A stretch of DNA of 64,000 bases from an uncultured Anaerolineae bacterium (GTDB lineage Bacteria; Chloroflexota; Anaerolineae; JAFGEY01): positions 33,977 through 97,976 of the forward strand of contig CAYRXM010000001.1 in assembly GCA_964428175.1 (NCBI GenBank), read 5' to 3'. The notes below the pieces were generated by a model. The model was not told the origin of the DNA and did no database searches. It saw only the letters and a program-made list of their open reading frames with translations. The translations under genes were made by a program, and so were the position numbers. Positions 12,263 to 46,302 of the stretch are shown here, piece after piece. Position 1 is the stretch's first letter, and every line of letters starts with the position of its first letter.

Positions 12263-12389
12263 GAGTCCACTGAAACTAAAAACGACTGGAAAAATGGGAC
12301 ACTGATCTTCACTGATTGACGCTGATTTTTATTTTTTTATCAGTGTGCGTTAGCCCGTGTTTATCTGTGTCCCTTTTTTCAGGGGAGTC
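12263..12389 (+). repeat. MITE-like repeat, family A copy 1
   Basis: Most positions are identical to the reverse complement of 52218..52346. Imperfect TIRs: GAGTCCACTGAAA ... TTTCAGGGGAGTC. Confidence 0.8.
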
Positions 12390-12545
12390 ATCTCAGAAAC
12401 TCGCCAGAAAATAAGCGAACCCCGAGCATCTGGCTTGACATTTGAGCGGTGTTTTGTTATGCTGAAAATCAAAGTGTGCATCACCTGTTTCGGGCCGGAT
12501 CGACACGGTCATGCTGCGCTCCGGCTCAAAAGAAAAGGAGACGCA

Positions 12546-14723: not shown

Positions 14724-14798
14724 TGGTACCCCCGATGCGACTCGAACGCATGCTCCCGGCTCCGGAGGCCGGCGCTCTATCCACTGAGCTACGGGGGC
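14724..14798 (-). tRNA. tRNA-Arg (anticodon CCG), CCA encoded
   Basis: Reverse complement GCCCCCG-TA-GCTC-AGTGGATA-GAGC-G-CCGGC-CTCCGGA-GCCGG-GAGC-ATGCG-TTCGAGT-CGCAT-CGGGGGT-A-CCA folds as a cloverleaf. Confidence 0.93.
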
Positions 14799-19297: not shown

Positions 19298-19686
19298 TGG
19301 TGGAGATGCCGGGAATCGAACCCGGGTCCGAAGAATTCGACCGTGAATATACTACAAGCTTGTTCGTTCTTTTGACATTTTGCCTGGACTAGCTCCGAAC
19401 GACAGGATCACATCTCGGCTAGCCGATCATCTTGGGCCTACGGTATCGGCGTCACGCAGGCCGCACCCCAGTCTCTATGACGCCCACTCCCCAAGCACCG
19501 GGGGAACTTGGGGGTGAACGTGATACCCGCAGGTATCGGGTTCTCCTTATGGGAGCTTACGCAGCCATCGGGAGAGCCGCGAGATTTGGTCTCTTGGCAT
19601 TTGATTGTTTGCCCGGTTTTAACGAGGCCCAGGCGCCTCGGCTTGCAATCCAGGATCAGCCTTCCCCGTCGAAGCCGATCATCCCC
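19298..19686 (-). ncRNA. ssrA: tmRNA (SsrA)
   Basis: The minus strand starts GGGGATGATCGGCTTCGACGGGGAAGG and ends CCGGGTTCGATTCCCGGCATCTCCACCA (tRNA-Ala-like acceptor and T arm). The internal tag reading frame ends ...CTC GCG GCT CTC CCG ATG GCT GCG TAA. Confidence 0.9.
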
Positions 19687-21466: not shown

Positions 21467-23356
21467 TTACTGGCCGGCCAGAATCGGGTCAAAATCCAGG
21501 TCAAGGGCAGTCTCACAGCGCGAGGGCCGATAGATGTATTGGTTCTTGAATTGATCGTCCTGTTCTGAAAAACGGGAGTGATTGTAGGGCAAAATCTTGA
21601 CCTGCACCTGTTCGCGAAAACCGCGCTCGCCTTCGTCGAGCAGGATCTGTTCGCGCAGGGTCTTGAATTCCTGGTTGATTTCGGCCAGCCCCGTGACCAA
21701 CTGCTTGGCCGCGACCACCTGAATCTGCTCGGCATTTTGCCCGGCGTTGGCCTCAAAGTGCAGCCACAGCACGCGATGCCCATCGATATAGTCGACGCTT
21801 TGCGCGGTAAAACGCCCGGTCAGCTCGGAAATCTGCGAGGCGACCAGTTGCAAATGGTGGCCGTAGATTTTGGCTCCCACCCAGCTCACCGCAGCGTCGA
21901 GGCCACCGTTGCTATAACTGTCCAGCCGCCCGTTGGTGAGGATCATGTCGCCCGAATCGTAACGGATGCGCAGCGCACGCGCAACGTACTTGATGTCGAC
22001 GCCGGTTTCGGCTTTGAGCAGGCCGGCCAATTCGTCCAAATCCCAGACGTGCATCACATCCAGGTGGCAGTTGACCACCTCACCGGTCAGGGCGGTGGCA
22101 AATGCGGGGCCAAAGTGATAGCCGTCGTTGGGCCGAAGCGAGGGCTTGCCTTCTTGATCCACACTGCCGATCAGGAAATAGACGCCGGGGTTGGATTTGA
22201 GCGCCGACCAGGGGAAGGACTGCCCGCCAAAGTGATGTTCCAGAAACGGGCGAACCAGTGCAGGCTGGTTGCGCTCCAGCAAATACATTACCGTGCTCCA
22301 CAGCATGGTCGTATTATTGCTCGAAAACCCGGTCTTGAGTTCGGCTGCGCCAAACCCGGTAGAAAACGTCTTGAGCAGGGTGGTCAGCTGGTGCAGCGCC
22401 TGGGCATCGGCGAGAATATCGTTCAGTTGGCGGTCTATCAAACCGGCATCCACAATCCCCAGCCACTCGGCCACCTGGAACATCTTGTAAGGCGGAAAGG
22501 CCTCGCCGGTCAAAATAAACTTGAACTCGATCTGCGCGCTCATGTTGTCCAGCGCCTGGCTTTGGCGCAGTTCGTTCACAATCGAGATCAGGTTGGGCGC
22601 ATAGGTGTACAATGCGATCAGCGTCTTGGACGTGCTCGCGCGCATAACGTCCTGAATGTGCTGTGCGGTCTCGGACGGGCTAAAACCGGTGTGCTCAAAG
22701 TGGAGGTGCGGGAACTCGTCGCTCAGCATCGACAAGAGCTGAACCATGTTGTATCCCGCTCCCCAGGCCGGCTCGCCGGGCACCGACTTGGCAACGCCGA
22801 CCACGATCTCGACACGTTCATAGCGGTCGATCTCCCAGTTGGACCACAAAAACTGCTTCATCGAGGGCAGGGTTTCGGCCACCTGGCCTTTGGACATCAG
22901 GAACAGCTTTTGCCGGCCCGTGCTGCCGGAGCTTTTGAGCATCTGTGCGTTGCCGGCCGCGCCGATGCTGAGGCGATCTTGGGGTGAGTAGGTGTGGAAA
23001 AATTCCGCGTTCATGATCGGCAACTTGCGCAAGGCCTCAATGTCCTCCTCGATAAAGGACATATCCTGGATGCCCGCCGCGCGCCAAAAAGCAATGCAGG
23101 CCCGGTTGTAGCGGGCCAGATAGCGCACGGTTTGCAGCGCCTTTTTATGAGCCGTCTTGCGCTGGATCGAAGCTGGGGTCACCTGCTGCAACAGGGTTAT
23201 CAGGTTGATGTTGCGTAACAAGGGGATTTTGTCCAGCGTTCTTTGGAAACGCATGAGCGAAGCAATGGCCGCATCCATTTCGGCCAAAGTGGGCGCCTGA
23301 TCGGCCAGCGGCACGACCTGGGCGTCATCGAGTTCGATGTACGAATTGGTAGTCAT
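21467..23356 (-). CDS. adenylate-forming (ANL/PaaK/F390-synthetase/GH3-like) enzyme, 629 aa
   Basis: P-loop-like SSGSTGRQK lies about 150 aa from the N-terminus. The large two-lobed size fits the family. RBS GAGGAGG. The substrate is unknown. Confidence 0.55.
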   Translation of the reverse strand: MTTNSYIELDDAQVVPLADQAPTLAEMDAAIASLMRFQRTLDKIPLLRNINLITLLQQVTPASIQRKTAHKKALQTVRYLARYNRACIAFWRAAGIQDMSFIEEDIEALRKLPIMNAEFFHTYSPQDRLSIGAAGNAQMLKSSGSTGRQKLFLMSKGQVAETLPSMKQFLWSNWEIDRYERVEIVVGVAKSVPGEPAWGAGYNMVQLLSMLSDEFPHLHFEHTGFSPSETAQHIQDVMRASTSKTLIALYTYAPNLISIVNELRQSQALDNMSAQIEFKFILTGEAFPPYKMFQVAEWLGIVDAGLIDRQLNDILADAQALHQLTTLLKTFSTGFGAAELKTGFSSNNTTMLWSTVMYLLERNQPALVRPFLEHHFGGQSFPWSALKSNPGVYFLIGSVDQEGKPSLRPNDGYHFGPAFATALTGEVVNCHLDVMHVWDLDELAGLLKAETGVDIKYVARALRIRYDSGDMILTNGRLDSYSNGGLDAAVSWVGAKIYGHHLQLVASQISELTGRFTAQSVDYIDGHRVLWLHFEANAGQNAEQIQVVAAKQLVTGLAEINQEFKTLREQILLDEGERGFREQVQVKILPYNHSRFSEQDDQFKNQYIYRPSRCETALDLDFDPILAGQ

Positions 23357-25152: not shown

Positions 25153-25306
25153 GGTCTGCTCCTTGAAAAAAATCGCCCGGTCGTGTATAATACGAGCAAA
25201 TCCTCAAATTATGAGACCTTGACGAGAGCTTTTGCTCACGTTGGAATCTATTATAAAAGCAAAAATGTCCCCTGTCAAGCACAAAGGAGACCTTTTGTCG
25301 GAAACG

Positions 25307-25924
25307 ATGCGCAACATCCCCCAACAGGCGCGCAGCCAGCAGCGCGTCGACTTGATCCTCGACACCGCTGCTGCGCTGTTGGCCGAAATCGGCTACGACG
25401 CGATCACCACCAATGCCGTCGCCAAACGCGCGGGCATCTCGGTTGGCTCGTTGTATCGTTACTTTGCAGACAAGGACGCCATCTTGCACGCACTGGCCGA
25501 TCGCTACCTGGCCCGGCTGAACGAACTGTACCAGACGCTGTTTACCGCCGATGCGATTTACCTGCCCTTGCCGGTGCTGCTCGACCGCCTGATCGACCCG
25601 TTTGTCGAGTTCGACCAATGCTGCCCGGCCTTTGCGCGCATCTTGCTCGGCTCCGATGTGTCGGCCGACATTGCCCGGGCGGCGCAGCAGATCGAGATCG
25701 ACACCATCGAGCGGATCAGGCAACTGCTGCAAATGCGCCTGCCGCACATCGACGGAGAGCGGGCTTTGATGGTGGCCCTCGTCTGCAAGGCGGTGGTCAA
25801 GGCGCTGCTGGCGCTGCTGGCGACGCCGGCGGGAAAAGCACGGCAGGCGCAGGTGATCGCCGAGATGAAAGGGCTGCTGCTCGATTATCTGGCCCCCCTC
25901 TGGGATGAGGAAAGACAAGCGTAA
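25307..25924 (+). CDS. TetR/AcrR-family transcriptional regulator
   Basis: HTH block RVDLILDTAAALLAEIGYDAITTNAVAKRAGISVGSLYRYF. Divergent from the SDR gene. The start is ambiguous (25265, 25295 or 25307). Confidence 0.85.
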   Translation: MRNIPQQARSQQRVDLILDTAAALLAEIGYDAITTNAVAKRAGISVGSLYRYFADKDAILHALADRYLARLNELYQTLFTADAIYLPLPVLLDRLIDPFVEFDQCCPAFARILLGSDVSADIARAAQQIEIDTIERIRQLLQMRLPHIDGERALMVALVCKAVVKALLALLATPAGKARQAQVIAEMKGLLLDYLAPLWDEERQA

Positions 25925-25963
25925 CCAGCCCATTCTCGAGATTCCACGGGCCTGGCCCAACCG

Positions 25964-25997
25964 AACCCTCTGCCTGGAAAAGCAGAGGGTTTATTTT
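25964..25997 (+). terminator. rho-independent terminator after tetR
   Basis: AACCCTCTGC-CTGGAAAA-GCAGAGGGTT followed by TATTTTG. Confidence 0.7.
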
Positions 25998-26358
25998 GTG
26001 CCAGGATAGGGGGAATCCCCCATTTCGGGCAAGGGTAAGCTCTGATCGAAAAGAGGGGAAAAGGGATTGTATTTCAAGCTCTTTTATGGTTTCATACATG
26101 TATTATCACCTTGCCCATATTGCAGCAGAATTATCCCCACATCCACCATACATTCATCCAAGCATTGCCTGCGGCCTCATCTCGGGGCATGGAGCGAATT
26201 GAAATCATCCACGCGAATCTGGAATTCGCGGCCGGGCATTTGTCTGGCCCGGCAGATTCTTGATCAAGGAGGTGAACCGACTATCAGACAAGCCAACCGC
26301 AAGTAACATATTTTTATCCGCTACGAACCTATTTTCATGTTTATCCAGGAGGGAAACG

Positions 26359-27489
26359 ATGTCGAGAAAGAATTTGCCTTTGGCGCTGGTGACCATTCTG
26401 GTCACGGCGCTCATGGTGCTGTCGGCCTGCGTTGCGGGCAAGACGACTGTAGCGACCAAAGCACCGGACACCAAGCTGGCAGTGGGCATTGTGCTGCCGA
26501 CCAAGGACGAGCCGCGCTGGATTCAGGACGAAACCCGCTTCCGCGACGCGATCAACGCCGCTGGCTATGAGGTCGAAATCCTCTTCAGCCAGGGCGATTC
26601 GTCCAAGGAAAAAGCGAACGTGGAAGACCTGATCACCAAGGGCGTCCAGGTCATCATCATCTGCCCGCACGACGGCACGGCTGCCGCTGCGGCGGCCCAG
26701 GCCGCCCAAAAAGCCGGCGTCAAGGTCATCTCGTATGACCGCCTCATCCGCGACACGGATGCGGTGGACTATTACGTGACCTTTGACAGCATCGCCGTCG
26801 GCGCGGCCTGGAGCCAGTACCTGATCGACCAGGCCACCGGCACCGGCAACCCGCTGTACCTCTATGCCGGCGCCGCTTCTGACAACAACGCTTTCATCTT
26901 TTTCCAGGGCGCCTGGGAGACCATCCAGCCCAAGATCGCCGATGGCACGTTCGTGATCAAGAACTCGAGCGAGGCGGTCGCCTTGCAGAACAAGAAGGAA
27001 CTGACCCGCGACGAGATGGCCAAGATCATCGGCCAGGTGACCACCAACTGGAACTTTAATGATGCCAAGACGCTGGCCGAATCGAACCTCACCGCCGCTT
27101 CGGCGGCCGACAAGGGCACCGTCTACATCCTGGCCCCCAACGACGGCACGGCGCGCGCCATCGCCGACGCCTTTGCCGCCGACAAGGACGTGACCCAATA
27201 CTATGTCACCGGCCAGGACGCCGAAAAGGCCTCCGTCCAGTACATCATCGATGGCAAGCAGTCCATGACCGTCTTTAAGGACGTGCGCATGCTGGTCAAC
27301 GACGCCATCGCCGCCGCCGTCGCCCTGCTTCAGGGCAAGGCCCCGGCTTCCAAGGGCGCCTACAACAATGGCAAGATCGACGTGCCGGCTATCCAGTCGG
27401 CGGTCATCACCGTCGACCGGAACAACGTCAAGTCCGCCTTGATCGATTCGGGTTACTATAGCGCCGGCGACTTTACCAACTTGCCCTGA
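26359..27489 (+). CDS. sugar ABC transporter substrate-binding lipoprotein (CUT2, ChvE-like)
   Basis: Lipobox LMVLSAC. LPTKDEPRWIQD...KGVQVIIICPHDG...GVKVISYDRLIRDTDAVDYYVTFDSIAVG is typical of ChvE/multiple-sugar binding proteins. Confidence 0.85.
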   Translation: MSRKNLPLALVTILVTALMVLSACVAGKTTVATKAPDTKLAVGIVLPTKDEPRWIQDETRFRDAINAAGYEVEILFSQGDSSKEKANVEDLITKGVQVIIICPHDGTAAAAAAQAAQKAGVKVISYDRLIRDTDAVDYYVTFDSIAVGAAWSQYLIDQATGTGNPLYLYAGAASDNNAFIFFQGAWETIQPKIADGTFVIKNSSEAVALQNKKELTRDEMAKIIGQVTTNWNFNDAKTLAESNLTAASAADKGTVYILAPNDGTARAIADAFAADKDVTQYYVTGQDAEKASVQYIIDGKQSMTVFKDVRMLVNDAIAAAVALLQGKAPASKGAYNNGKIDVPAIQSAVITVDRNNVKSALIDSGYYSAGDFTNLP

Positions 27490-27645: not shown

Positions 27646-29169
27646 ATGGATATTCCCCTGCTCGAGATGAAGAACATTAGCAAAGAATTCCCCGGCGTCA
27701 AGGCTCTGGACGATGTCAGTTTTGCCGTGCGTGAAGGAGAAATTCATGGCCTGGTTGGAGAAAACGGCGCGGGAAAATCGACCCTGATGAAGGTGTTGAG
27801 CGGCGTCCATCCATATGGAACCTATAGCGGCGACATTTTGCTGCACGGGGAGACACAAACATTCAGAGGAATCGGCGACAGCGAAAAAGCCGGTATTGCC
27901 ATTATTTATCAAGAATTGGCGCTTGTCCCTGAAATGACCGTGTACGAAAACATTTTTCTCGGCCACGAGATTCGTCGTGGTCTCGCCATCGACTGGAACG
28001 AAACGATCAAGCGGGCCAGTGAAATGCTCCGCAGGGTCAGGCTCGATGTCAACCCCGAAACCAGGGTCAGAGACCTGGGCGTGGGCAAACAGCAGCTGGT
28101 CGAAATTGCCAAGGCGCTGAACCGCAACGTCAAGATATTGATTTTAGATGAGCCGACGGCGGCGCTGAACGAGGCCGACAGCGCCAACCTGCTGAACTTG
28201 CTGCGTGAGCAGCGCGAACACGGCGTGACCTGTGTCTTGATCTCGCACAAGCTCAGAGAAGTGATCGAAATTGCCGATTCGGTCACAGTTCTGCGCGACG
28301 GGAAAACCATCTGCACCCTGGATGCCCGCAACGGCGAGGTCTCCGAACCGGTGCTGATCAAGCACATGGTTGGGCGTGAGATCAACAACATCTATCCGCC
28401 GAGAGAGCATCGCCCGTCCGACGAAATCGTGCTTGAAGTGAGAGGCTGGAACGCCTTTCATCCCCAACTGGATCGGGACATTCTCAAAGACATTGACTTT
28501 ACGGTCAAAAAGGGCGAAATTGTCGGCTTTGCCGGGCTGATGGGATCGGGACGCACCGAGCTGGCATTGAGCCTGTTTGGCAACCCGGAAGGCTACCATA
28601 TCAGCGGCGAGATATTCTTGCACGGTGACAAGATGCACTTTGGCCACCCCAAAGACGCGATCAAGGCCGGGCTGGCCTATCTGAGCGAAGATAGAAAAGG
28701 CAACGGCCTGATCTTGATCCAGGATGTCAAGCAAAACATTACCCTCGCCAACTTGAGCGAGATCGCACGGCGCGGCGTGGTCGACAGTAATGCCGAAATC
28801 CAGGTCGCCACCCGCTACAAGGACTCGCTCAACATTCGCACCCCCAGCGTCGAGCAGCGGGTTGGAAATTTGAGCGGCGGCAACCAGCAAAAGGTCTGCC
28901 TGGGCAAGTGGTTGTTCGTCAGGCCAGATGTGCTCATCCTCGACGAGCCAACACGTGGCATCGACGTCGGCGCAAAATACGAAATCTATACCATTATGAA
29001 CCGGCTGATCCAGGAAGGGATGAGCATCATCATGATCTCGTCCGAACTGCCCGAGATATTGGGAATGAGCGACCGGGTATACGTCGTTTCTGCGGGCAGA
29101 ATCGTCGGCGAGCTGCCGGTAGAGGAAGCGACGCAAGAAGTGATCATGGATCTGGCGACTGATTATTGA
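27646..29169 (+). CDS. sugar ABC transporter ATP-binding protein (two NBDs, CUT2)
   Basis: RBS GGAGGG. Walker A GENGAGKST and GLMGSGRTE, Walker B ILILDEPT / VLILDEPT, and ISHKL switch. Confidence 0.9.
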   Translation: MDIPLLEMKNISKEFPGVKALDDVSFAVREGEIHGLVGENGAGKSTLMKVLSGVHPYGTYSGDILLHGETQTFRGIGDSEKAGIAIIYQELALVPEMTVYENIFLGHEIRRGLAIDWNETIKRASEMLRRVRLDVNPETRVRDLGVGKQQLVEIAKALNRNVKILILDEPTAALNEADSANLLNLLREQREHGVTCVLISHKLREVIEIADSVTVLRDGKTICTLDARNGEVSEPVLIKHMVGREINNIYPPREHRPSDEIVLEVRGWNAFHPQLDRDILKDIDFTVKKGEIVGFAGLMGSGRTELALSLFGNPEGYHISGEIFLHGDKMHFGHPKDAIKAGLAYLSEDRKGNGLILIQDVKQNITLANLSEIARRGVVDSNAEIQVATRYKDSLNIRTPSVEQRVGNLSGGNQQKVCLGKWLFVRPDVLILDEPTRGIDVGAKYEIYTIMNRLIQEGMSIIMISSELPEILGMSDRVYVVSAGRIVGELPVEEATQEVIMDLATDY

Positions 29170-29335: not shown

Positions 29336-30520
29336 ATGTTTTTCCACGACCTGGCCCAAGTTTTGCGCAAAAATATTCGCGAATACGGCATGTACATTGC
29401 CCTGTTTGTGATCATGGTCATCTTTACAGTGACGACCAATGGTATATTTATCTCTTCGCGGAACATCAGCAACCTGCTGAACCAAACCGGCTATATCGCA
29501 GTCCTGGCGGTGGGGATGACACTGGTCATCGTTATCCGGCACATCGACCTGTCGGTCGGCTTTTTGGCCGGCTTTCTCGGCGCGGTGGCAGCGATTGCGC
29601 TGCAATTCTGGAAGCTGCCGGTTTATCTGGTCATCCCCATGATCCTGGTTCTCGGTGCGCTGGCTGGGCTGGTCACGGCTTTTCCGGTAGCCCAGTTGGG
29701 CATCCCTTCTTTTGTGGCCTCACTGGCTGGCTGGCTGATTTACCGTGGCGCACTGCTGCTGGTCACCGCCGGCACGGGCACCATCATTATCGATGACAAT
29801 ACGTTCAACGCGATCAGCAATGGCTATATCCCCGACATTCTGATCGACAGCGGCTTTTTGCCCAATGTGCATAAATTGACCTTGCTTATTGGATTGGTGG
29901 GCATTGTGCTGTTTATCGTCAACGAACTCAACAGCCGCAGGAAAAAACTAGCCTATAACTTTGAGGTCCTGCCGATCCCCATCTTTATCCTCAAGCTGGT
30001 CTTTGTGTCGGTGCTGATTGGCCTGATTACCTGGGTACTGTCGGGGTACAACGGCCTCTCCTGGACATTGGTCATTGTCTTGATTGTGGTCGCCATCTAT
30101 CATTTTATCACCACCCAAACCATCCTCGGACGGCACATCTATGCCATTGGCGGCAACCCCGAGGCCGCTGAATTGAGCGGCATCAGCGTCAAAAACCTGA
30201 CCTATGTGGTCTTTGGTTCGATGGGCATGCTCGCGGCGCTGTCGGGTATCATATATGCCTCGCGTTTGCGCTCGGCCACCACGACGGCCGGCCAGCTCTT
30301 TGAAATGGATGCCATTGCCGCGGCCTATATCGGCGGTGTATCAGCAGCCGGTGGCGTCGGCAAGGTGATGGGATCGATCATCGGCGCTCTGGTGTACATG
30401 TCGCTGACCAGCGGCATGAACCTGATGAAAGTCGATATTGCTTACCAGTACGTGGTCAGAGGGGCTGTACTGGTGGCTGCCGTTGTCTTTGATGTCGCCA
30501 CCCGCAGCCGGGGAAAATAA
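29336..30520 (+). CDS. sugar ABC transporter permease (CUT2, GguB/XylH-like)
   Basis: RBS GAGGAGG. Polytopic, and positioned directly after the ATPase gene. Confidence 0.85.
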   Translation: MFFHDLAQVLRKNIREYGMYIALFVIMVIFTVTTNGIFISSRNISNLLNQTGYIAVLAVGMTLVIVIRHIDLSVGFLAGFLGAVAAIALQFWKLPVYLVIPMILVLGALAGLVTAFPVAQLGIPSFVASLAGWLIYRGALLLVTAGTGTIIIDDNTFNAISNGYIPDILIDSGFLPNVHKLTLLIGLVGIVLFIVNELNSRRKKLAYNFEVLPIPIFILKLVFVSVLIGLITWVLSGYNGLSWTLVIVLIVVAIYHFITTQTILGRHIYAIGGNPEAAELSGISVKNLTYVVFGSMGMLAALSGIIYASRLRSATTTAGQLFEMDAIAAAYIGGVSAAGGVGKVMGSIIGALVYMSLTSGMNLMKVDIAYQYVVRGAVLVAAVVFDVATRSRGK

Positions 30521-30654: not shown

Positions 30655-32244
30655 ATGAGCCTGTTGAGCGTTCACAACCTTGCACACTATTTCGGTGCGG
30701 TGCCGGCCCTGACAGACGTGAACCTGGACATTGAGCCGGGCGAAGTGATCGGCGTGGTCGGGCAGCGCGGGGCGGGTAAATCGACGCTGTTTCAATTGCT
30801 CAGCGGCGCTTTTGGCCCCTCCAACGGCGATATTGTGGTCGATGGCCGGCCGGTGACGTTCAAGACGGTTTTCCAGGCGCAGCGATTGGGCATTGTGGCC
30901 GTACACCAACAGCCCGGACTGATCGAAGACCAGGATGTCCTGCACAACATCTTTTTGGGCCGAGAAATCTGCGGCCCACGCTGGTTTCCGTTCTTGCCGC
31001 GAGAAGGGCAAATGATGCAGGCGGCGCGGGCATTACTGGCCTCGTTCGACCTGTCCAGCGAGTTTATCGAGCAGCATGCCGCCGTGCTTTCCAACGAGCA
31101 ACGACAGATCGTCGCCCTGGCGCGGGCGCTTTGCCGCCCATGCCGGCTGCTGCTGCTCGACGACGCCCTGGCCGCGCTGAACTTTGCGCGCCAGCAAACG
31201 CTGCTCGACCGGATCAAGGAACTGGCGGCGCAGAATGTCGCCATCGTCATGAGCAGCGATGACTTGAAGCAGATTTTTGCCGTTACCGACCGTATCCTGG
31301 TGCTCTACCAGGGCCGCCAGGTCGCCCTCCGTCACACCACCGAATCTACGCCGCGCGAAATTGTGGAACTCATCGTCGGCTCCAACCGCCAGGATCGCAT
31401 CACCCCGGTCATTTGGGCTTTTGAAAACTATTACGCTGCCCAGCAGCAGGCTGAGGAACTGCGACGGGCGCAGTTTGAACTGCGTCAAAACCTGGAAGCG
31501 CAAGGCTCGCTCAATCGCCAGTTGATCGAACGGCTGCAAAGCCAGGTGCAGGCGCTCGACCGTTTGAACCTGGCCTTGCAGCAGCTCAGCCGCCGCCTGA
31601 TCACCGAACGCGAAGCCGAGCGCAAGGCGCTGGCGCGCGAACTGCACGATCAGATCATCCAGGATATGTTGAGCTATACCTACCAGTTGGAAGAGGTGGA
31701 GAGTGAAACCAACGAGGAGAGCCTGCGCGAGCAGCTGGCCCAAATCCGCGACGGCATCCGGCAAATGGTGGGCAGCCTGCGCCTGTTGTGCAGCGACCTG
31801 CGCCCGCCCACCATCGACCACCACGGCCTTTCGGCGGCCATCCGTTCGCTGACAAGCCAGTGGTCGGAACAAACCGGCATCCCGGTCAAACTGGAAATCG
31901 ATCCGGCGCTGGGCCGCCTGCCGGAAACCATCGAGCTTTCAGTGTTTAGAATCATCCAGGAGGGGTTGAGCAACGTGCGCAAGCACGCCGAGGCCACGCG
32001 CGTGAACCTCTCCCTGTGGCGCACCCCCGCCGCCAGCCTGATGGTGTGTCTGTCCGACAACGGCCGCGGCATGGACAAACCGCTCAACCTGGCCGCGCTG
32101 ACCGAGCAAAAGCATTTCGGGCTGGTGGGCATCAGCGAGCGCGTGTCGCTGCTGGGCGGCGCCTTGCAGGTGGCCTCACCGTCCGACGGCGGGCTGGAGC
32201 TGCGCATCGAAATCCCCAATCCCTACCCGTTCAGTCATCCATAA
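30655..32244 (+). CDS. soluble histidine kinase with N-terminal degenerate ABC nucleotide-binding domain (NBD - coiled coil - HisKA_3 - HATPase_c)
   Basis: The N-terminal ~245 aa are collinear with NBD1 of the neighbouring ATPase: Walker A GQRGAGKST, signature LSNEQRQ, Walker B LLLLDD, and the switch His lost (SSDDL). A Q/L/R-rich heptad region follows, then H-box ERKALARELHDQIIQ and HATPase_c (EGLSNVRKHA, DNGRGM, FGLVGISER). No TM helix. Confidence 0.85.
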   Translation: MSLLSVHNLAHYFGAVPALTDVNLDIEPGEVIGVVGQRGAGKSTLFQLLSGAFGPSNGDIVVDGRPVTFKTVFQAQRLGIVAVHQQPGLIEDQDVLHNIFLGREICGPRWFPFLPREGQMMQAARALLASFDLSSEFIEQHAAVLSNEQRQIVALARALCRPCRLLLLDDALAALNFARQQTLLDRIKELAAQNVAIVMSSDDLKQIFAVTDRILVLYQGRQVALRHTTESTPREIVELIVGSNRQDRITPVIWAFENYYAAQQQAEELRRAQFELRQNLEAQGSLNRQLIERLQSQVQALDRLNLALQQLSRRLITEREAERKALARELHDQIIQDMLSYTYQLEEVESETNEESLREQLAQIRDGIRQMVGSLRLLCSDLRPPTIDHHGLSAAIRSLTSQWSEQTGIPVKLEIDPALGRLPETIELSVFRIIQEGLSNVRKHAEATRVNLSLWRTPAASLMVCLSDNGRGMDKPLNLAALTEQKHFGLVGISERVSLLGGALQVASPSDGGLELRIEIPNPYPFSHP

Positions 32245-33320
32245 TCGGGCCGGCAGTTCAGCACATCCTGCACCACGTGCAAGACGGTGGCCGCATCAAT
32301 GTCCTGCTTGTCCAGAAACGCCACCGCGCCGGCGTCCAACCCCAGGCGGCGAAATTCTCGGTCTGGGTAGGCGCTGATCAAAATGAGCCGGGTCGCCGGT
32401 GAGAGGGTTTTGATCTGGCGCGTACACCAGATTCCCCCCTTTTCTGGCAAAACCACATCGATGAACGCCAGCTGCGGCTGCACGTGCCGGGCCAGGTGCA
32501 GCGCCTCGTCGCAGTCATTGGCCTCATAGAGCGAGGCGGCCGGATAGGCCTTGCCGACCAGCTTGCCGAGCTGCGTGCGGTAGCGCGCATTGTCGTCGAC
32601 AATGAGCACGGACAGACCTGGCTCTCCTTGCATCGCCGCGTCTGTGAGCGCCATTTCATAGCCGGGCCGGGCCAGTATTTCCGGGTGACGCATGGCATAG
32701 TTGTTGGCCTCCAGCCGGCTCTCCACGCCGATGACCCGGTAAAGCGCGGTGAGGTGATTTTCCACCGTCTTGACGCTCAAATCAAGTTCGCCGGCGATCC
32801 GCCGGTTGCTGTAGCCGAGCGTCAGCAGGCGCAGCAGGTCGCGCTGCCGCTGGGTCAGCATGGCCGACGATGTACCGGTCGTGACCGGGTGTTGGTCAAT
32901 CAGCCGGTTCACCAACGGGCCGGAAATCCAGCGATCCCCGCTCAAAATCTTGCGCACCGCAAATTGCAGGTCAGAAAGCGGCTGGTCCTTGAGGTGATAC
33001 CCGTCCACGCCGGCGGAGAGCAGCCCCACCACGTAGGCCTGATCGTCGTAGGCGCTCACCACCAGAATTTTGAGGCCGGGATATTGGGAACGAATCCGGC
33101 GCGTCATCGCTACCGGCTCGAATTCGGGCATATTGACATCGACGACCAGAAAATCCGGCCCAAGTGTTTCAAGCGCCTGCATCAGTTCACTGCCGCTGCC
33201 CACTTCACCGACGATTTCCAGGCCGGTCAGGTTAGCCAGCGCATTGCGCAGCCCCGCGCGCACAATCGCGTGATCGTCGGCCAACAGAACCTGGATGGAC
33301 TTGCACATTTTCGCCTTCAT
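32235..33320 (-). CDS. NarL/LuxR-family response regulator with REC-HTH-REC architecture
   Basis: REC1 VLLADDH...VVDVNMPEF...VSAY...HLKD. LuxR HTH LTQRQRDLLRLLTLGYSNRRIAGELDLSVKTVENHLTALY. REC2 VLIVDDN...FIDVVLPEKGG...ISAY...FLDK. The start is ambiguous (33308, 33320 or 33338). Confidence 0.85.
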   Translation of the reverse strand: MKAKMCKSIQVLLADDHAIVRAGLRNALANLTGLEIVGEVGSGSELMQALETLGPDFLVVDVNMPEFEPVAMTRRIRSQYPGLKILVVSAYDDQAYVVGLLSAGVDGYHLKDQPLSDLQFAVRKILSGDRWISGPLVNRLIDQHPVTTGTSSAMLTQRQRDLLRLLTLGYSNRRIAGELDLSVKTVENHLTALYRVIGVESRLEANNYAMRHPEILARPGYEMALTDAAMQGEPGLSVLIVDDNARYRTQLGKLVGKAYPAASLYEANDCDEALHLARHVQPQLAFIDVVLPEKGGIWCTRQIKTLSPATRLILISAYPDREFRRLGLDAGAVAFLDKQDIDAATVLHVVQDVLNCRPDYG

Positions 33321-33344
33321 TCGTCTGATCAACCACAAGCCGGG

Positions 33345-33947
33345 CTATGCGTCTGTGCCCGGCACAAACACGCGCAGCCCATCGCGCTCATCCACAATAT
33401 AGGCCCTGGACGGGTACTTGAGCGCCACCCCAACCAGCCACATATCGCCGATCGAACTGCCCGTGTTGAGCACCGTGCAGAAAACAATCGTCCAGCCCAG
33501 CCAGCCCGGCAGGGGCAAAACCAGCAGCAGCAGCCCCAGCAGTCCCAACCCCACCAGCGGGGCCAGCGCGATCACAATATAGTGATTGCGCCGGAAAGCG
33601 TAGCTGGGTGCCGTCGCGTAAAACATCATCTCTTTCCACAAAATGCCATACCTGGGGCGTGCGCCGTAATAGCGCAAGGCGAGGCCGTGCGTCCACTCGT
33701 GGATCACGATGGTCAGCACAACGCCAATCACCATCGCCAGTATCTCGAGCGGGTGCATGCTAACGGTGAACCCGTCCGGGTGCCACAGATTCACCCAGCT
33801 CAAGATGGGCATGGCGACCAGCCCCATCAGCAGCAGGGCCACCACGTTCAAAACCACGAGCAGCAGTTTCTGCCCGGACAGTTTCCAATACAGCACCTGC
33901 CGGTAGCCATCGGGCAGGTGAATGGGCGATGCCAGCTCGGTTGTCAT
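33345..33947 (-). CDS. DUF3267-like membrane protein (putative zincin, HExxH)
   Basis: IHEWTHGLALRYYGA motif between TM helices. Ends 7-25 nt before the regulator start. Start trimmed to MTTELASP. Confidence 0.65.
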   Translation of the reverse strand: MTTELASPIHLPDGYRQVLYWKLSGQKLLLVVLNVVALLLMGLVAMPILSWVNLWHPDGFTVSMHPLEILAMVIGVVLTIVIHEWTHGLALRYYGARPRYGILWKEMMFYATAPSYAFRRNHYIVIALAPLVGLGLLGLLLLVLPLPGWLGWTIVFCTVLNTGSSIGDMWLVGVALKYPSRAYIVDERDGLRVFVPGTDA

Positions 33948-34049
33948 ATATCGGCTTGACTCCTCTCCCGCTTGCGGTCTAGGCATAGCGGCCACAGCTG
34001 AGCCGGTATTATAGCACGAGTTGACCTAAAAACCCAAGTGTCGCGCAAT

Positions 34050-40850: not shown

Positions 40851-40861
40851 AAGCATCGTAA

Positions 40862-41039
40862 ACCTTCGGGGCAGGGTGCGGGGGAATGCGCACAACGCAT
40901 TCCTTTTACTCCCGACCGGCGGTAAAGGGTAACACAACATGCGTGTTACGCCAAGCCCGCGAGCCGGATGTGGCGCTGCCACTTGAGGCCGATCTGGTGC
41001 GATTCCAGAGCCGACGGTATAGTCCGGATGAGAGAGGGT
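40862..41039 (+). promoter_or_regulatory. FMN riboswitch (RFN element) aptamer
   Basis: RFN consensus blocks occur in the correct order: CTTCGGGGCAGGGTG (40864-78), CTCCCGACCGGCGGTA (40909-24), AGCCCGCGAGCC (40954-65), and CTGGTGCGATTCCAGAGCCGACGGTATAGTCCGGATGAGAGAGGG (40994-41038). P1 is ACCTTC / GAGGGT. Confidence 0.8.
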
Positions 41040-41085
41040 GGTCATGCCTGCGCGCGATGATCGCGCCGGGTTGATATGACAGGGC

Positions 41086-41142: not shown

Positions 41143-41970
41143 ATGAGCGGATATTCGCCATCACAAACGCGAGCAGGCGCAGAGCAGGGCCGCGAATCCA
41201 CCGGCTGGCTCGCTCTTGCCCGCCGGCAGCAGCACATACTGCTGCTGCCCTTGGCGCTGCTCGTCTTTCTGGGCCTGTGGGAGCTGATCGTCTGGCTGGG
41301 GCAGTATCCGCCGTTCATCTTGCCTACGCCGCGCCGCGTGTACGAGCGGTTCTGGATCGCGGCGAACACGGGCCGGCTGTGGTGGCACACCGGCGTGACC
41401 CTGACCGAGATCGGCGGGGGGTTGGCGCTGGGGCTGACCCTGGCGCTGCTGCTCGGCTACTGGATGGCCAAATCGCGCGCGCTGGAGCGTTTCGTATCGC
41501 CGTACATTGTCGCTTCGCAGTCGGTGCCGATCGTGGCCCTGGCGCCGCTGCTGGTGATCTGGTTCGGCCCGGGGCGCTTGAGCAAGATATTGGTTTGCGC
41601 GCTGACCCTGTTTTTTCCCATGTTGATGAACACCATGGTCGGCATCCGCTCGGTCGACCGCGATCTGGTCAACCTGATGCGCTCGCTGCGCGCCACGCGC
41701 TGGCAGATGTTTGCGCTGCTCCAAGTGCCCTCCGCGCTGCCGACGCTGCTCGGCGGCCTCAAGGTGAGCATGACCCTCTCGGTGATTGGCGCGGTGGTGG
41801 GCGAATTTGTCGCCGCCGACCGTGGGCTGGGCTTTTTGATCAACCTGGCGCGAGGCAACTTTGACACCCCGCTGATGTTTGTAGCCATCCTGACCCTGAT
41901 GGTCATCGCCCTGTTCTTATACCTGGCTGTAATGCTTTTGGAAACTATTTTGCTACGAGGGAGGCATTGA
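41143..41970 (+). CDS. ABC transporter permease (NitT/TauT family, RibX-like)
   Basis: BPD_transp_1-type permease. First gene after the FMN riboswitch. Confidence 0.85.
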   Translation: MSGYSPSQTRAGAEQGRESTGWLALARRQQHILLLPLALLVFLGLWELIVWLGQYPPFILPTPRRVYERFWIAANTGRLWWHTGVTLTEIGGGLALGLTLALLLGYWMAKSRALERFVSPYIVASQSVPIVALAPLLVIWFGPGRLSKILVCALTLFFPMLMNTMVGIRSVDRDLVNLMRSLRATRWQMFALLQVPSALPTLLGGLKVSMTLSVIGAVVGEFVAADRGLGFLINLARGNFDTPLMFVAILTLMVIALFLYLAVMLLETILLRGRH

Positions 41971-41972
41971 GG

Positions 41973-42953
41973 ATGAAAAAAATTCGCTTTTGTGCTATAT
42001 TTGCCTTGCTTGTTGGGCTGACCGCGGTGGGCTGCGCCCGTTCTACCGCCAGGCGCGGCGAATCGCAAGCGATCAAACTGGCCATGGGCTTTATTCCCAA
42101 CGTCCAGTTTACGCCGGTCTATGTCGCCGTCGACAAGGGCTATTTTGCCGATGAGGGCATCCAAATTGAATTTGATTATGGCATGGAGCACGACCTGCTC
42201 AAGCTGGCCGGCGCCGGCGAACTGCAATTCGTCATTGGCAGCGGCGACCAGGTGATCATGGCCCGCAGCCAGGAACTGCCGGTGATTTATGTGCTCAACT
42301 GGTACCGCCGCTTTCCCGTGTCGGTGGCGGCGTTGACGCCACTGGCCGCGCCCGGCGACCTGAGCGGCGCCAAGGTGGGCATTCCAGGGCTGTACGGGGC
42401 CAGCTATATCGGCTGGCTGGCGATGCTGAACGCGGCAGGCGTCGATCCGGCGGCGGTAAACCTGATCAGCATCGGTTATACGCAGGCAGAAAACCTGGTC
42501 GCCGGGCAGGTAGATGCGGCGGTGGTCTATGCGATGAACGAGCCGGTGCGGCTGCGCGAGCAGGGCTACGAGGTGAGTGAACTGCTGGTGGCCGACTATA
42601 TCAATTTCGTTTCCAACGGGTTGATCACGAATGAAAAGACGATCCGTGAGCAGCCCGACCTGGTGCGCGGGATGGTTCGCGCCATCGTCCGCGGCTTGCG
42701 GGATACGTTGGACGATCCCGACGCGGCCTTTGCGATCTGCCGCCGCCACGTGCCCGAAATCGACGACGCGGGCGCGCCGCTCCAGCGGGCGGTGCTGCAA
42801 GCCGCACTCGACTTTTGGCGCGGCGATCTGCTGGGCGAGTCCGATCCGGCCGCATGGGAGGCGTCGGTGGCTTTTATGCGCCAGAGCGGGATGATCAACG
42901 TCGATCTCGACCCGGCCCAACTCTATAGCAACGAATTTGTGCCCGCTAAATGA
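41973..42953 (+). CDS. ABC substrate-binding lipoprotein, NMT1/THI5-like (RibY-like)
   Basis: Lipobox LTAVGC. KLAMGFIPNVQFTPVYVAVDKGYF is typical of NMT1/ThiY-like SBPs. Confidence 0.8.
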   Translation: MKKIRFCAIFALLVGLTAVGCARSTARRGESQAIKLAMGFIPNVQFTPVYVAVDKGYFADEGIQIEFDYGMEHDLLKLAGAGELQFVIGSGDQVIMARSQELPVIYVLNWYRRFPVSVAALTPLAAPGDLSGAKVGIPGLYGASYIGWLAMLNAAGVDPAAVNLISIGYTQAENLVAGQVDAAVVYAMNEPVRLREQGYEVSELLVADYINFVSNGLITNEKTIREQPDLVRGMVRAIVRGLRDTLDDPDAAFAICRRHVPEIDDAGAPLQRAVLQAALDFWRGDLLGESDPAAWEASVAFMRQSGMINVDLDPAQLYSNEFVPAK

Positions 42954-43741
42954 GCACCTCGGTCGATCCTGCCTGCGCGCCCGACGAGCCGATCTTGATC
43001 GTCCGGCATCTCGGTGTCACTTTTGACTCGCCCGAGGGCGGCCTGGGCGCGTTGGATGATGTTTCGTTCCAGATGTGTCCCGGCGAGTTTGTGTGTGTCG
43101 TCGGACCGTCGGGGTGCGGCAAGAGCACGCTGCTGCGCGTGCTGGCCGGCCTGCTCCCGCCGACGCGGGGCCAAGTCACGCTGCGCGGCGAAACGCTCGA
43201 CGGGCCAAACGCCGACGTGGGCGTGGTTTTTCAAAAGCCCAACCTGATGCCCTGGCGCACGGTGCAGCACAACATCACTCTGCCGCTGGATGTGCAAGGC
43301 GTCGACCGGAAAACGGCGCACACGCGCGCGCAGGCGCTGATCGACCTGGTGGGGCTGAGCGGGTTCGAGCGCAGTCGCCCGCATGAACTGTCCGGCGGGA
43401 TGGCCCAGCGGGTGGCCATCGCCCGCGCACTGATTTATGACCCCGAAATTCTGCTGCTTGATGAGCCGTTCGGCTCGTTGGATATGCTTACCCGCGAACG
43501 GATGAACCTGGAATTGCAGCGCATCTGGCAGCAGCGCCGCAAGACGGTGTTGATGGTCACTCACGACATCCAGGAGGCAGTTTTTCTCTCCGACCGGGTG
43601 TTGGTGATGAGCGTGCGTCCGGGGCAGATCACCGAGCAGGTCGAGATCGACCTGCCGCACCCGCGCAGCACCGATGTGCTATACGACCCGGTGTTTCTGA
43701 CCTACATGCGGCGCATCCGCGAGGCGATTGAAGCTCTTTAA
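42950..43741 (+). CDS. ABC transporter ATP-binding protein (NitT/TauT family)
   Basis: Walker A GPSGCGKST, signature LSGGMAQR, Walker B LLLDEPF. Confidence 0.9.
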   Translation: MSTSVDPACAPDEPILIVRHLGVTFDSPEGGLGALDDVSFQMCPGEFVCVVGPSGCGKSTLLRVLAGLLPPTRGQVTLRGETLDGPNADVGVVFQKPNLMPWRTVQHNITLPLDVQGVDRKTAHTRAQALIDLVGLSGFERSRPHELSGGMAQRVAIARALIYDPEILLLDEPFGSLDMLTRERMNLELQRIWQQRRKTVLMVTHDIQEAVFLSDRVLVMSVRPGQITEQVEIDLPHPRSTDVLYDPVFLTYMRRIREAIEAL

Positions 43742-44557: not shown

Positions 44558-46183
44558 ATGAAAAAAACTCTACTCAAACACATTCCCGGATTGATCCTCG
44601 TCGTAGCGGCGACCTGGCTGCTGCTGCAACTCGTCGCCGGCGCGGGGTTGTTTTTCGAACACATCGCGGCGGCGATCCGCTTTCCCTACGCGCTCGATTA
44701 CGGCGAGGGGCCGCTGCTCGACCAGGTGATGCATCTGGCACGTTTTGAAAACATTTACAAGCGCGACCTGAGCGCGCCGCCGTATACCATTTCCAACTAT
44801 CCGCCGCTTTTTTTGCTCGTCCAGGTGCCGCTGGCCTGGCTCTTTGGCCCGGCGCTGTGGTACGGGAGGGTCATCAACTTGATCAGCCTGGTTGTGGCCG
44901 CAGTCAGCATTGGTTTGACCATTTATACGATGACCGACGATCTGATCGCCGGGATCGTCGCCGGGCTGACCCTGCTGTTGTTCCCTTTTATCATCCATTG
45001 GTCGGCCTTTAACCGCATCGATGCGCTGGCGCTGGGGATTAGCTGCGCGGGGTTGTACGTCGTGGTGCGTTGGGGACACACCCGCCGCGGGTTGATCTGG
45101 GGCGCGGCGCTGCTGACCGCGTCGGTGTACACGCGGCAGTCGTATGCGCTGGCCGCGCCGATGGCCGCTTTTGTGTGGCTGCTGCGCCCCAGCGACGGGG
45201 CGAGCGTCGGTCGAGTAGGGCAATCGAACTTACTCGCACTCACCGAGTCTGCGAGTTCGAAAGGCCTGTATCGAGACCGCGCAAGCCTGCCCGATTCGCC
45301 GGCCGGACGGCTGCGCCGCGCCTTCGAACTGGCCGCCTGGGTAGCTGGAATGGGCCTGGGCGTGTTTGGGCTGCTCAACCTGATCACCTGGGGCGGGTTT
45401 TATTTCAACATTGTCACCGCCAATGTGAATCCCTTTTATTGGGGCACCGTTTGGGAATATGTCACCGAGATGTGGAAAAACATTCCCCTCTTGCTCGTTG
45501 CCGGTGCGTTGTTTTTGTCGGCCGGGCTGCTGCTGGTGACTGTTGGATTATGGCGGAGAAAAACGCTTGTCCCCAAGTCATGGTGGGTGGTCGCACCCTA
45601 TCTGGTCGGCGCGACGGCGTCGGCGATCACCATCGGCAAGTCGGGTTCGAACGTCAATTACCTGTTCGAGTTTTGCGCGGCGTTGGGCCTGGCAGTGGGC
45701 GCGTGGATCGCCTGGCCGAAAAAGTGGCCGCTGTTCCAGGCGGCGCTGATGCTGGCCCTGGTGCCGCAGGTCGCCGGCATTGCCCGCTGGACGCGCGAGG
45801 GGCGTTTTAACTGGATCATGGGCAAGATTGCCGAGCGCGACGAGATCGCCCGGATGACCGAGCTGGCGCGTGAGGTCGATGGCCCGGTGCTGGCCGACGA
45901 GTATATGGCGCTGCTGCCGCTGGCGGGCAAGCCGCTCTATTATCAGCCTTTTGAGCTGAAACAGCTTTATCTGGCCGGCATCTGGGATGAAAGCGGCTTT
46001 TTGCGAGACATTCAGGAGCAGAAATTTCCGCTGCTGTTGATTTATGACCCGCAGGGGTGGAATTCGCAACGAGAGCGCTGGACGCCGCAGCAGCTTTTTT
46101 ACATATCGCTCTATTACGAAGAAACAGATCGACTGGCCAGTACCATTGTGTACCAGCCAAAAAGCTTTGTTTTGAACGATTGA
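44558..46183 (+). CDS. polytopic membrane protein, possible GT-C (ArnT/PMT-like) glycosyltransferase
   Basis: More than 10 TM helices, an N-terminal YALDYGEGPLLDQ loop, and a soluble C-terminal domain. The functional call is tentative. Confidence 0.55.
   Translation: MKKTLLKHIPGLILVVAATWLLLQLVAGAGLFFEHIAAAIRFPYALDYGEGPLLDQVMHLARFENIYKRDLSAPPYTISNYPPLFLLVQVPLAWLFGPALWYGRVINLISLVVAAVSIGLTIYTMTDDLIAGIVAGLTLLLFPFIIHWSAFNRIDALALGISCAGLYVVVRWGHTRRGLIWGAALLTASVYTRQSYALAAPMAAFVWLLRPSDGASVGRVGQSNLLALTESASSKGLYRDRASLPDSPAGRLRRAFELAAWVAGMGLGVFGLLNLITWGGFYFNIVTANVNPFYWGTVWEYVTEMWKNIPLLLVAGALFLSAGLLLVTVGLWRRKTLVPKSWWVVAPYLVGATASAITIGKSGSNVNYLFEFCAALGLAVGAWIAWPKKWPLFQAALMLALVPQVAGIARWTREGRFNWIMGKIAERDEIARMTELAREVDGPVLADEYMALLPLAGKPLYYQPFELKQLYLAGIWDESGFLRDIQEQKFPLLLIYDPQGWNSQRERWTPQQLFYISLYYEETDRLASTIVYQPKSFVLND
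45201..45290 (+). repeat. family D repeat copy 2, in-frame inside a CDS
   Basis: GAGCGTCGGTCGAGTAGGGC and AGGCCTGTATCGAGACCGCGCAAGC match the D1 core. It encodes the loop ...SVGRVGQSNLLALTESASSKGLYRDRASLP... Confidence 0.7.
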
Positions 46184-46302
46184 CGCATGCCCAAGCCATT
46201 ACTCGCGGGATGATTTACCATCGTCCCGCTTTTTTTGAAGCCCCCTTCATTCTGTGCTATACTATCGTCCATGAAGCACTTGACTTGTCTGGGCATGAAT
46301 CG

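Follow-up and report, generated by a model that had tools for sequence, protein, structure and literature searches.

Transporter-coupled sensing by histidine kinases is established for the Bce, Pst/PhoU/PhoR and DctA/DcuS systems, and the route by which the conformation of a transporter reaches its kinase is poorly understood. The kinase BceS has no sensor domain of its own and needs the cognate ATP-binding cassette (ABC) transporter encoded alongside (bioRxiv 10.1101/2020.02.28.969956; PMC3023708). In the PstSCAB-PhoU-PhoR system, the state of an ABC importer is relayed cytoplasmically to a histidine kinase (PMC9239213); DctA-DcuS is a further case of transporter-coupled sensing of similar logic (PMC5703999), and in CbrA and CrbS the transporter domains of the SLC5 family are covalently fused to histidine kinases (PMC7096432, PMC5715377). 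We analysed a gene at positions 30655..32244 of a 64-kb stretch of DNA from an uncultured Anaerolineae bacterium (the window, to which all window coordinates refer). This gene encodes a histidine kinase with a degenerate ABC nucleotide-binding domain (NBD) at its N-terminus, and it stands directly after a sugar importer of the CUT2 type. Our preferred reading, to which we give a probability of roughly 50%, is that this NBD-kinase is the sensor of a five-gene cassette, complete in itself, that serves both the uptake of sugar and the control of that uptake, with the hydrolysis-impaired NBD (pseudo-NBD) acting as an input domain docked on the permease. The kinase, its parts and the other four genes of the cassette are the following.

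26360..27489, + strand: sugar-binding protein, ChvE/XylF-like, Peripla_BP_4 (Pfam E=9.5e-46; NCBIfam ChvE model, 251 bits)
27646..29169, + strand: genuine CUT2 ATPase, GguA-like, with two ABC_tran domains (NCBIfam GguA model, 764 bits)
29336..30520, + strand: permease, GguB-like, BPD_transp_2 (NCBIfam GguB model, 399 bits); the sole permease gene
30655..32244, + strand: open reading frame (ORF) of the NBD-kinase, 529 aa, with ABC_tran, HisKA_3 and HATPase_c
30655..31389, + strand: pseudo-NBD (kinase residues 1-245), with intact Walker A and Q-loop, LSNEQ, LLLLDD and SSDDL
31390..31614, + strand: helical linker (kinase residues 246-320), with the conserved cap TPVIWAFENYY and helices predicted by AlphaFold2
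31615..32244, + strand: HisKA_3 dimerisation/phosphotransfer and HATPase_c catalytic domains (Pfam), with the H331 codon at 31645-31647
32235..33338, - strand: response regulator REC-GerE-REC, 367 aa, with two Response_reg domains and GerE (Pfam); likely start at 33320 or 33308

The initial annotation, made from the sequence alone, had described a kinase with an ABC ATPase domain as its only sensor and with neither a transmembrane helix nor a PAS or GAF domain. This description holds. Pfam detected ABC_tran at residues 19-172 (E=3.7e-26), HisKA_3 at residues 322-385 (E=2.1e-12) and HATPase_c at residues 427-522 (E=5.4e-8), and the scan found no PAS, GAF or any further domain in the kinase. The maximum 19-residue Kyte-Doolittle hydropathy is just 1.17, too low for a transmembrane helix. 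The kinase core has the conserved motifs ELHDQ (H331), the N box QEGLSNVRKH (N440) and DNGRG / HFGLVG, that is, the H-box and the HATPase_c domain with N and G boxes that belong to a HisKA_3 kinase; residues ~300-522 group with the HisKA_3 kinases MctS, UhpB and LiaS in NCBIfam. Judged by these motifs, the C-terminal half of the protein is a normal HisKA_3 kinase. No curated NCBIfam family matched the full-length protein.

The N-terminal domain points to a different origin. For residues 1-247, the top NCBIfam models were those of NBD1 of the CUT2 ATPases YtfR, XylG and GguA (E=1e-41 to 1e-47), with scores of 141-159 bits against equivalog cut-offs of 699-850. The alignment with NBD1 of the neighbouring ATPase, which had been noticed at the outset, was recovered by BLASTP with 33% identity over 228 aa (E=1e-37), and NBD2 of the same ATPase gave 25% identity (E=2e-16). 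All the motif changes reported initially were found to be correct: Walker A is intact (GQRGAGKST), Walker B reads LLLLDD, with the catalytic Glu replaced by Asp, the switch region reads SSDDL where NBD1 has ISHKL, and the D-loop is altered. To these can be added two features that had not been mentioned, a signature that reads LSNEQ and not LSGGQ (LSxEQ across the family) and a retained Q-loop Gln (Q85). The A-loop aromatic residue and the Walker B Asp are also kept. Thus, as an ABC NBD the domain has the fold, the Walker A motif and the Q-loop, and it lacks the canonical signature, the catalytic Glu and the switch His. As a CUT2 ATPase it has the NBD1-type motifs (NIFLGxE, terminal VG) but not the two tandem NBDs in a single polypeptide of ~500 aa.

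For 44 loci, we aligned the NBDs of the kinases with both NBDs (NBD1 and NBD2) of the genuine ATPase encoded alongside. The kinase NBDs share with NBD1 the Walker A motif, the Q-loop Gln, NIFLGxE in the helical subdomain, the Walker B Asp and the VG at the end of NBD1. They differ systematically from the genuine NBDs in the signature (LSxEQ versus LGVGKQQ or LSGGNQQ), in the catalytic Glu and in the D-loop (ALSFxRQ), and their switch region SSDD is nearer to the SSE of NBD2 than to the SHK of NBD1. In the window, the genuine ATPase carries canonical NBD1 catalytic motifs, with the consensus ISHKL in NBD1 and LSGGNQQ in NBD2. Since the VG of the end of NBD1 is kept in the kinase, the fusion point is at the inter-NBD linker of a CUT2 ATPase. 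These comparisons support the pseudo-NBD as a real NBD, descended from CUT2 NBD1, in which the residues for hydrolysis have been replaced.

An AlphaFold2 model of the window kinase, built with a 25-sequence alignment, is consistent with this ancestry and with the proposal that the N-terminus is an ABC domain. Residues 1-240 were predicted with a predicted local distance difference test (pLDDT) score of ~90, and in a Foldseek search the model resembled the ABC NBDs PhnK, LptB, MalK, MetN and CbiO with target-normalised TM-scores of 0.83-0.88; the best structural match of the domain was PhnK (7z18_I, TM-score 0.83). After the NBD, helices are predicted at residues 246-282 and 287-351, the second of which contains H331, followed by the second helix of the dimerisation and histidine phosphotransfer (DHp) domain and by the catalytic domain. 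We found no chain in the PDB that joins an NBD and a kinase, and a sequence search detected no CUT2 permease in the PDB.

The five genes, i.e. those of the binding protein, the two-NBD ATPase, the permease, the NBD-kinase and the REC-GerE-REC regulator, form a cassette that is widespread in Anaerolineae. In the window, the order binding protein-ATPase-permease-kinase on the + strand and the convergent overlap of 10 nt at the 3' end, both given in the initial annotation, agree with the coordinates: the kinase stop codon TAA lies at 32242-44 and the regulator stop at 32235-37 (TCA, or TGA on the - strand). The binding-protein gene most likely starts at ATG 26360, which is preceded by an AGGAGG site, and its single-domain product has a signal-peptide-like N-terminus. 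The permease and kinase genes are 134 nt apart, and no terminator-like site was seen between them, so that the kinase is probably in the same operon. Also as had been noted, there is no LacI or ROK regulator among the ORFs scanned between 12 and 52 kb.

The synteny with a CUT2 importer, which had been put forward as the key test of the annotation, was exceptionless in loci with adequate flanks. We searched 80 loci with the neighbouring proteins of the window, and the binding protein, ATPase and permease (64-88% identity) were present in every locus with enough flanking DNA; the loci without a transporter match all end on the side where the transporter is expected. Binding-protein orthologs were 64-87% identical where found, and permease orthologs 66-88%. 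The gene order varies. Besides the order of the window (order A, binding protein-ATPase-permease-kinase with a convergent regulator) and its variant A' with a co-directional regulator, we found an order B (kinase, convergent regulator, then binding protein-ATPase-permease), an order C (regulator divergent from kinase-binding protein-ATPase-permease) and, in the branch of P0124, the order binding protein-ATPase-permease-regulator-kinase. Clustering of all ORFs of 81 loci revealed no further recurrent gene family, the next commonest being present in 10 loci, so that the five-gene unit is self-contained, and no conserved catabolic gene that would hint at the substrate was found nearby in these loci. 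A regulator ortholog was found in 67-69 of the 81 loci. In seven loci there is no regulator within 10 kb, and the kinase still adjoins (follows) the permease. The link between kinase and transporter is therefore tighter than that between kinase and regulator.

Some features of these loci deserve mention in their own right. The seven loci without a nearby regulator are L009, L011, L014, L017, L022, L025 and L044, and in most of them one or two opposite-strand ORFs of ~600-620 aa, from a family found in 10 loci, come after the kinase. The binding protein has a single domain in the window, in Anaerolinea thermolimosa and in few others; in most related cassettes its gene encodes ~720 aa with two tandem Peripla_BP_4 domains (L086:2735-4879; L001:4906-7107; L066:12963-15194; L036:7318-9492). 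Both halves of the binding protein of Phototrophicus methaneseepsis are near-identical, and the public gene call kept only the second half. Two ORFs of 858 aa (L037:551-3127 and L067:227-2803) join a CUT2 ATPase-like N-terminus to a binding-protein-like stretch, which may be a fusion, a frameshift or an artefact of ORF calling.

HisKA_3 kinases normally partner GerE/NarL-type regulators, and the adjacent REC-GerE-REC gene provides such a partner. The regulator had been called NarL-type: it does carry a GerE domain and is convergent with the kinase, but its two receiver domains set it apart from the plain NarL type. Across 68 orthologs, the acidic pair, the acceptor Asp, the Ser and the Lys are kept in both receivers. 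The architecture is unusual, and the C-terminal receiver might be a phosphate sink or a second input. Taken with the synteny, it is very probable that the NBD-kinase and this regulator are the dedicated two-component system of the transporter.

GerE-type regulators generally bind inverted repeats as dimers. Two sites upstream of the binding-protein gene are relevant here.

25963..25992, + strand: intrinsic terminator at the end of a TetR unit, with an 11-bp stem (6 G-C pairs) and then a T run
26007..26022, no strand assigned: palindrome TAGGGGGAATCCCCCA, candidate operator; the only match in the window with <=2 mismatches

The terminator is the 5' boundary of the cassette, and the palindrome belongs to a family with the consensus TTAGGGG-AWWT-CCCCTAA. 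Its octamers occur in 30 of 48 regions upstream of binding-protein genes, versus 1.4 in random control stretches. The strict pattern gave 35 sites in 1.09 Mb of loci, about one per locus, almost all of them 150-350 nt upstream of the binding-protein gene irrespective of gene order. When up to one mismatch was allowed, a site was present upstream of this gene in 35 of 44 loci, and the total was 64 matches against 12.4 in shuffles. In Phototrophicus methaneseepsis, from a clade without Walker A, the only palindrome match within 19.6 kb is found 209 nt ahead of the point where the binding-protein gene truly starts. Because the only regulator conserved in the cassette is of the GerE type, a family that binds inverted repeats, we take the palindrome as the candidate operator, and it is rather probable that the regulator binds it.

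Two neighbours of the window cassette were considered and rejected as members. Related loci do not conserve the TetR gene (25232..25924), which the strong terminator sets apart from the cassette, and the DUF3267 gene (33345..33995) is absent from all of them. The latter encodes a putative zincin peptidase on the - strand (33345-33995); it precedes the regulator gene in the same direction, with a gap of 7 nt, and the two genes likely share a transcript.

The NBD-kinase is not restricted to the window. A word-indexed search gave over 100 clusters that are 66-85% identical and without exception have the three domains of the window kinase; these are from Anaerolineae and other Chloroflexota metagenome-assembled genomes and are labelled just "ATP-binding cassette domain-containing protein" or "signal transduction histidine kinase". 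A scan with one genome per species found relatives encoded in at least 496 genomes, those of the cultured Anaerolinea thermolimosa and Ornatilinea apprima included. The 80 loci listed are all from Chloroflexota, mostly from the class Anaerolineae, and some are from cultured organisms. In a HMMER search of 1.84 billion cluster representatives, the full-length matches formed a handful of 50%-identity clusters (P0120, P0121, P0122, P0124 and P0129), which indicates a compact family, and the remaining strong matches were ordinary two-NBD CUT2 ATPases. The divergent branch of P0124 is large and comprises Phototrophicus methaneseepsis, Aggregatilineales, Ardenticatenaceae and Promineifilaceae. The architecture is thus common, within one bacterial class, and we found no characterisation of it; commonness together with earlier characterisation had been named as what would speak against the annotation, and only the first half of this applies.

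An alignment of 242 full-length members (P0001-P0124, P0389-P0507) revealed how far the ATP site has been eroded. At position 170, that of the catalytic Glu, the residue is D in 149 members, N in 47, H in 24 and E in 13, and none of the common variants in this alignment has the canonical switch His (SH). Walker A, including its Lys, and the Q-loop Gln are lost in 69 of the 242 members, and the erosion of Walker A is graded by lineage (GQRGAGKST > GRSGAGKSV > ERVGSGVST > DREGLGILE > DHEGQAILE). These lineages form a natural series from ATP-binding-competent pseudo-NBDs to pseudo-NBDs without an ATP site. The rest of the domain is conserved to the same degree in both groups, with a mean major-residue frequency of 0.627 without and 0.636 with Walker A. 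Walker-A-less NBDs were modelled with pLDDT scores of 85-93 and an identical order of secondary-structure elements, and such a model matches MalK and MJ0796. The members concerned also remain in the cassette, one of them in the complete genome of a cultured organism. That Walker A can go while fold, conservation and synteny stay indicates a conserved role other than ATP chemistry. It argues against a plain ATP sensor and favours a docking or transducer module that would couple the permease to the kinase.

This bears directly on the reading that survives best among the alternatives, a cytoplasmic nucleotide or energy sensor in which the pseudo-NBDs would close on ATP, or tell ATP from ADP, without any contact to the transporter, the operon being a mere target. 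The window protein, with its Walker A, A-loop aromatic residue, Q-loop Gln and Walker B Asp, would suit such a sensor, as would the family-specific residues conserved at the NBD-NBD interface. Replacement of the Walker B Glu by Asp together with an altered signature goes with tight ATP binding and low hydrolysis, e.g. in nucleotide-binding site 1 (NBS1) of MRP1, which the kinase site resembles (PMC9898250). Yet the 69 members without the Walker A Lys and the Q-loop Gln are equal to the others in conservation, fold, linker and synteny, and an energy sensor has no obvious reason to stay beside one sugar importer, even where the regulator is elsewhere. We consider it unlikely. The description of the domain as ATP-binding but hydrolysis-impaired fits the window protein by its motifs, and it cannot be extended to the whole family.

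The positions that are at least 85% conserved in both Walker A groups fall outside the nucleotide pocket. They are P87, L101, G102 and E104, after the Q-loop and in the helical subdomain; L145, E148 and Q151 in the signature helix; L175, S176 and Q180 in the D-loop region; and the linker cap TPxIWA. In ABC importers generally, the coupling helix of the permease fits into a groove made up of the helical subdomain and the stretch that follows the Q-loop. As P87 and L101-E104 fall in the region of this groove, docking on the permease is the best-supported reading of the pseudo-NBD, and we place its likelihood a little short of even. The linker has the highest conservation in the protein (0.76-0.77) and showed no insertions or deletions in the alignments that we inspected directly (leaving aside P0185 and P0140, which are unrelated), as expected of a helical transmitter that is sensitive to register.

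With docking on the permease, the cassette might work as follows. The input domain would be a pseudo-ATPase derived from CUT2 NBD1, which has lost hydrolysis and, in many lineages, probably ATP binding too. The kinase dimer would attach its pair of pseudo-NBDs to the GguB-like permease dimer from the cytoplasmic side, where they would replace, or exchange with, the real ATPase. When the sugar-loaded binding protein docks from outside, the permease would rearrange and the two pseudo-NBDs would shift relative to each other; the rigid helical linker would relay this movement to the HisKA_3 domain and switch the balance between kinase and phosphatase activity. The phosphorylated regulator would then act at the palindrome upstream of the binding-protein gene and control the operon, which, in the gene order of the window, probably includes the kinase itself. 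In members with an intact Walker A, such as the window protein, non-hydrolysed ATP may clamp the closed pair of pseudo-NBDs, since intact Walker A, Glu-to-Asp and altered signature parallel the degenerate sites that hold ATP. More tentatively still, some GguB-like permease dimers may carry the dead NBDs of the kinase in place of the ATPase and thereby serve as dedicated signalling transporters, with an ATP clamp in some lineages and a purely mechanical coupling where the ATP site has been lost. Such a signalling transporter, if true, would convey extracellular sugar binding across the membrane to a kinase without any membrane segment, and through the same permease contact the kinase could throttle transport by competing with the ATPase.

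Several points weigh against the docked sensor. The contact between pseudo-NBD and permease is one that we infer from sequence, and synteny by itself could also mean that the transporter is just what the system regulates. The conserved residues of the helical subdomain could be purely structural. The family-specific residues of the signature and the D-loop suggest an NBD-NBD interface, and a self-contained dimer switch fits them as well as docking does. If kinase and ATPase share one site, the coexistence of transport and signalling is left unexplained. NBDs need not bind membranes, as the closest structural match, PhnK, has a soluble enzyme as its docking partner. Moreover, 9 of the 44 loci have no recognisable palindrome with up to one mismatch.

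The same signature-helix and D-loop residues, which lie on NBD-NBD surfaces and are conserved in family-specific form in both Walker A groups, could instead mean that the partner of the pseudo-NBD is the genuine ATPase, GguA, or some other cytoplasmic protein, and that ATPase turnover is reported through an NBD-NBD contact. Flux sensing via an ABC transporter is established for BceAB-BceS (bioRxiv 10.1101/2020.02.28.969956). GguA has both NBDs in one chain, however, so that its canonical dimer leaves no free half-site, and in a dimeric kinase the two pseudo-NBDs are presumably the likeliest partners of each other. We regard this explanation as improbable. Slightly further down we would put a repurposed pocket, in which the former nucleotide site binds an intracellular metabolite, e.g. 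the imported sugar or a sugar phosphate, and the protein is an ordinary ligand-sensing kinase. The pocket has indeed been remodelled repeatedly, from GQRGAGKST through ERVGSGVST and DREGLGILE to DHEGQAILE, in a domain that is still constrained. But its residues differ greatly between clades whose transporter is shared and highly conserved, a pattern that a common ligand would not be expected to leave, and the positions conserved in both Walker A groups lie outside it. Finally, a misassembled or decaying fusion without function has next to no probability: a similar-looking protein, P0185, did turn out to be an assembly chimera, but the NBD-kinase recurs as the same full-length protein in hundreds of species, including complete cultured genomes, with strong conservation and a linker free of indels in the inspected alignments.

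P0185 (L084:190-1809) had been considered as an ancestral-state NBD-kinase with intact catalytic motifs and was rejected as an assembly chimera, known from one contig of 2 kb only. An ordinary sugar ABC ATPase matches its N-terminal 42% at 97% identity, and Terriglobales PAS kinases match its C-terminal 59%, also at 97% identity. Another protein, P0140 (L085:823-3351), has 842 aa with the architecture ABC_tran-PAS-PAS-HisKA_3-HATPase_c and adjoins a plain REC-GerE regulator. It is encoded on a single 3.7-kb metagenome contig, could be a second kind of fusion or a chimera, and was not used as evidence.

The docked pseudo-NBD, if true, would be a new class of kinase input domain and would explain how a fully soluble kinase senses an extracellular sugar. 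It would also offer a tractable system for studying how a mechanical signal leaves an ABC permease and reaches a DHp domain by way of a coiled coil. Here the coupling domain of a transporter has been fused to a kinase and its chemistry then probably disabled, and across the lineages the ATP site ranges from intact to destroyed. Cultured hosts are at hand (Anaerolinea thermolimosa, Ornatilinea apprima, Phototrophicus methaneseepsis). The generic labels on hundreds of genomes would be replaced, in a class that is poorly studied and abundant in environmental samples.

Elsewhere in the window, a flavin mononucleotide (FMN) riboswitch (40858-41043, + strand, 94 bits) lies directly upstream of an ABC importer (41143-43741, + strand) with a BPD_transp_1 permease, an NMT1/THI5-like binding protein and an ABC ATPase, presumably for flavin-related uptake. 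There are also a transfer-messenger RNA gene (19298-19686, - strand, 173 bits), transfer RNA genes (14727-14798, - strand; 62394-62475, + strand) and large ORFs of 328-763 aa without a Pfam match at E<=1e-5 (12357-14648, + strand; 21467-23356, - strand; 44558-46183, + strand; 46057-47043, + strand).

How does the NBD-kinase compare with the systems described so far? The initial annotation knew of no characterised fusion of an NBD with a histidine kinase, and we found no description of one in the literature searched, in the PDB or in NCBIfam; in the literature on sugar signalling in Anaerolineae, nothing relevant was found. With NBD1 of the CUT2 ATPases (GguA, XylG, RbsA, YtfR), the window kinase shares the fold, Walker A, the Q-loop, NIFLGxE and VG. 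It differs from these ATPases in having one NBD and not two, the signature LSxEQ, a replaced catalytic Glu and a fused kinase. PhnK of the carbon-phosphorus lyase shows an NBD as a docking or clamping module outside transport; unlike the NBD-kinase, it is catalytically active, sits on a soluble enzyme core and has no signalling fusion. NBS1 of MRP1, for its part, sits in a working transporter beside a competent site, whereas the presumed kinase homodimer would have both sites degenerate.

On the signalling side, sugars are also signalled to the kinase VirA of Agrobacterium by ChvE, which serves the GguAB importer as its binding protein, and UhpB of E. coli, whose similarity is seen in the kinase core of the window protein (NCBIfam), is a HisKA_3 kinase that relies on the transporter-like partner UhpC. 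ChvE makes direct contact with the periplasmic domain of VirA, UhpB and UhpC both sit in the membrane, and neither system has an NBD. In Pst signalling, the relay uses the adaptor PhoU and the PAS domain of PhoR, and PstB is a working ATPase on a separate polypeptide. CbrA and CrbS fuse a complete membrane symporter to the kinase, whereas the NBD-kinase fuses only the inactivated soluble energising domain of an ABC transporter; with just ABC_tran, HisKA_3 and HATPase_c detected, it has no SLC5 domain with STAC linker. The comparison with BceAB-BceS that had been drawn at first is apt in its logic, a kinase paired with an ABC transporter encoded alongside, but it does not extend to homology of the sensing parts. 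BceS sits in the membrane and touches an FtsX-type exporter non-covalently, and its signalling needs ATP hydrolysis by BceA; the two transmembrane helices, the minimal extracellular loop and the BceAB-type partner of this class are not found for the window kinase. The NBD-kinase, in contrast, is soluble, carries a dead NBD covalently and has as its partner a binding-protein-dependent importer (BPD_transp_2). Thus, the pseudo-NBD as the input domain of a histidine kinase appears to be an as yet undescribed form of transporter-coupled two-component sensing.

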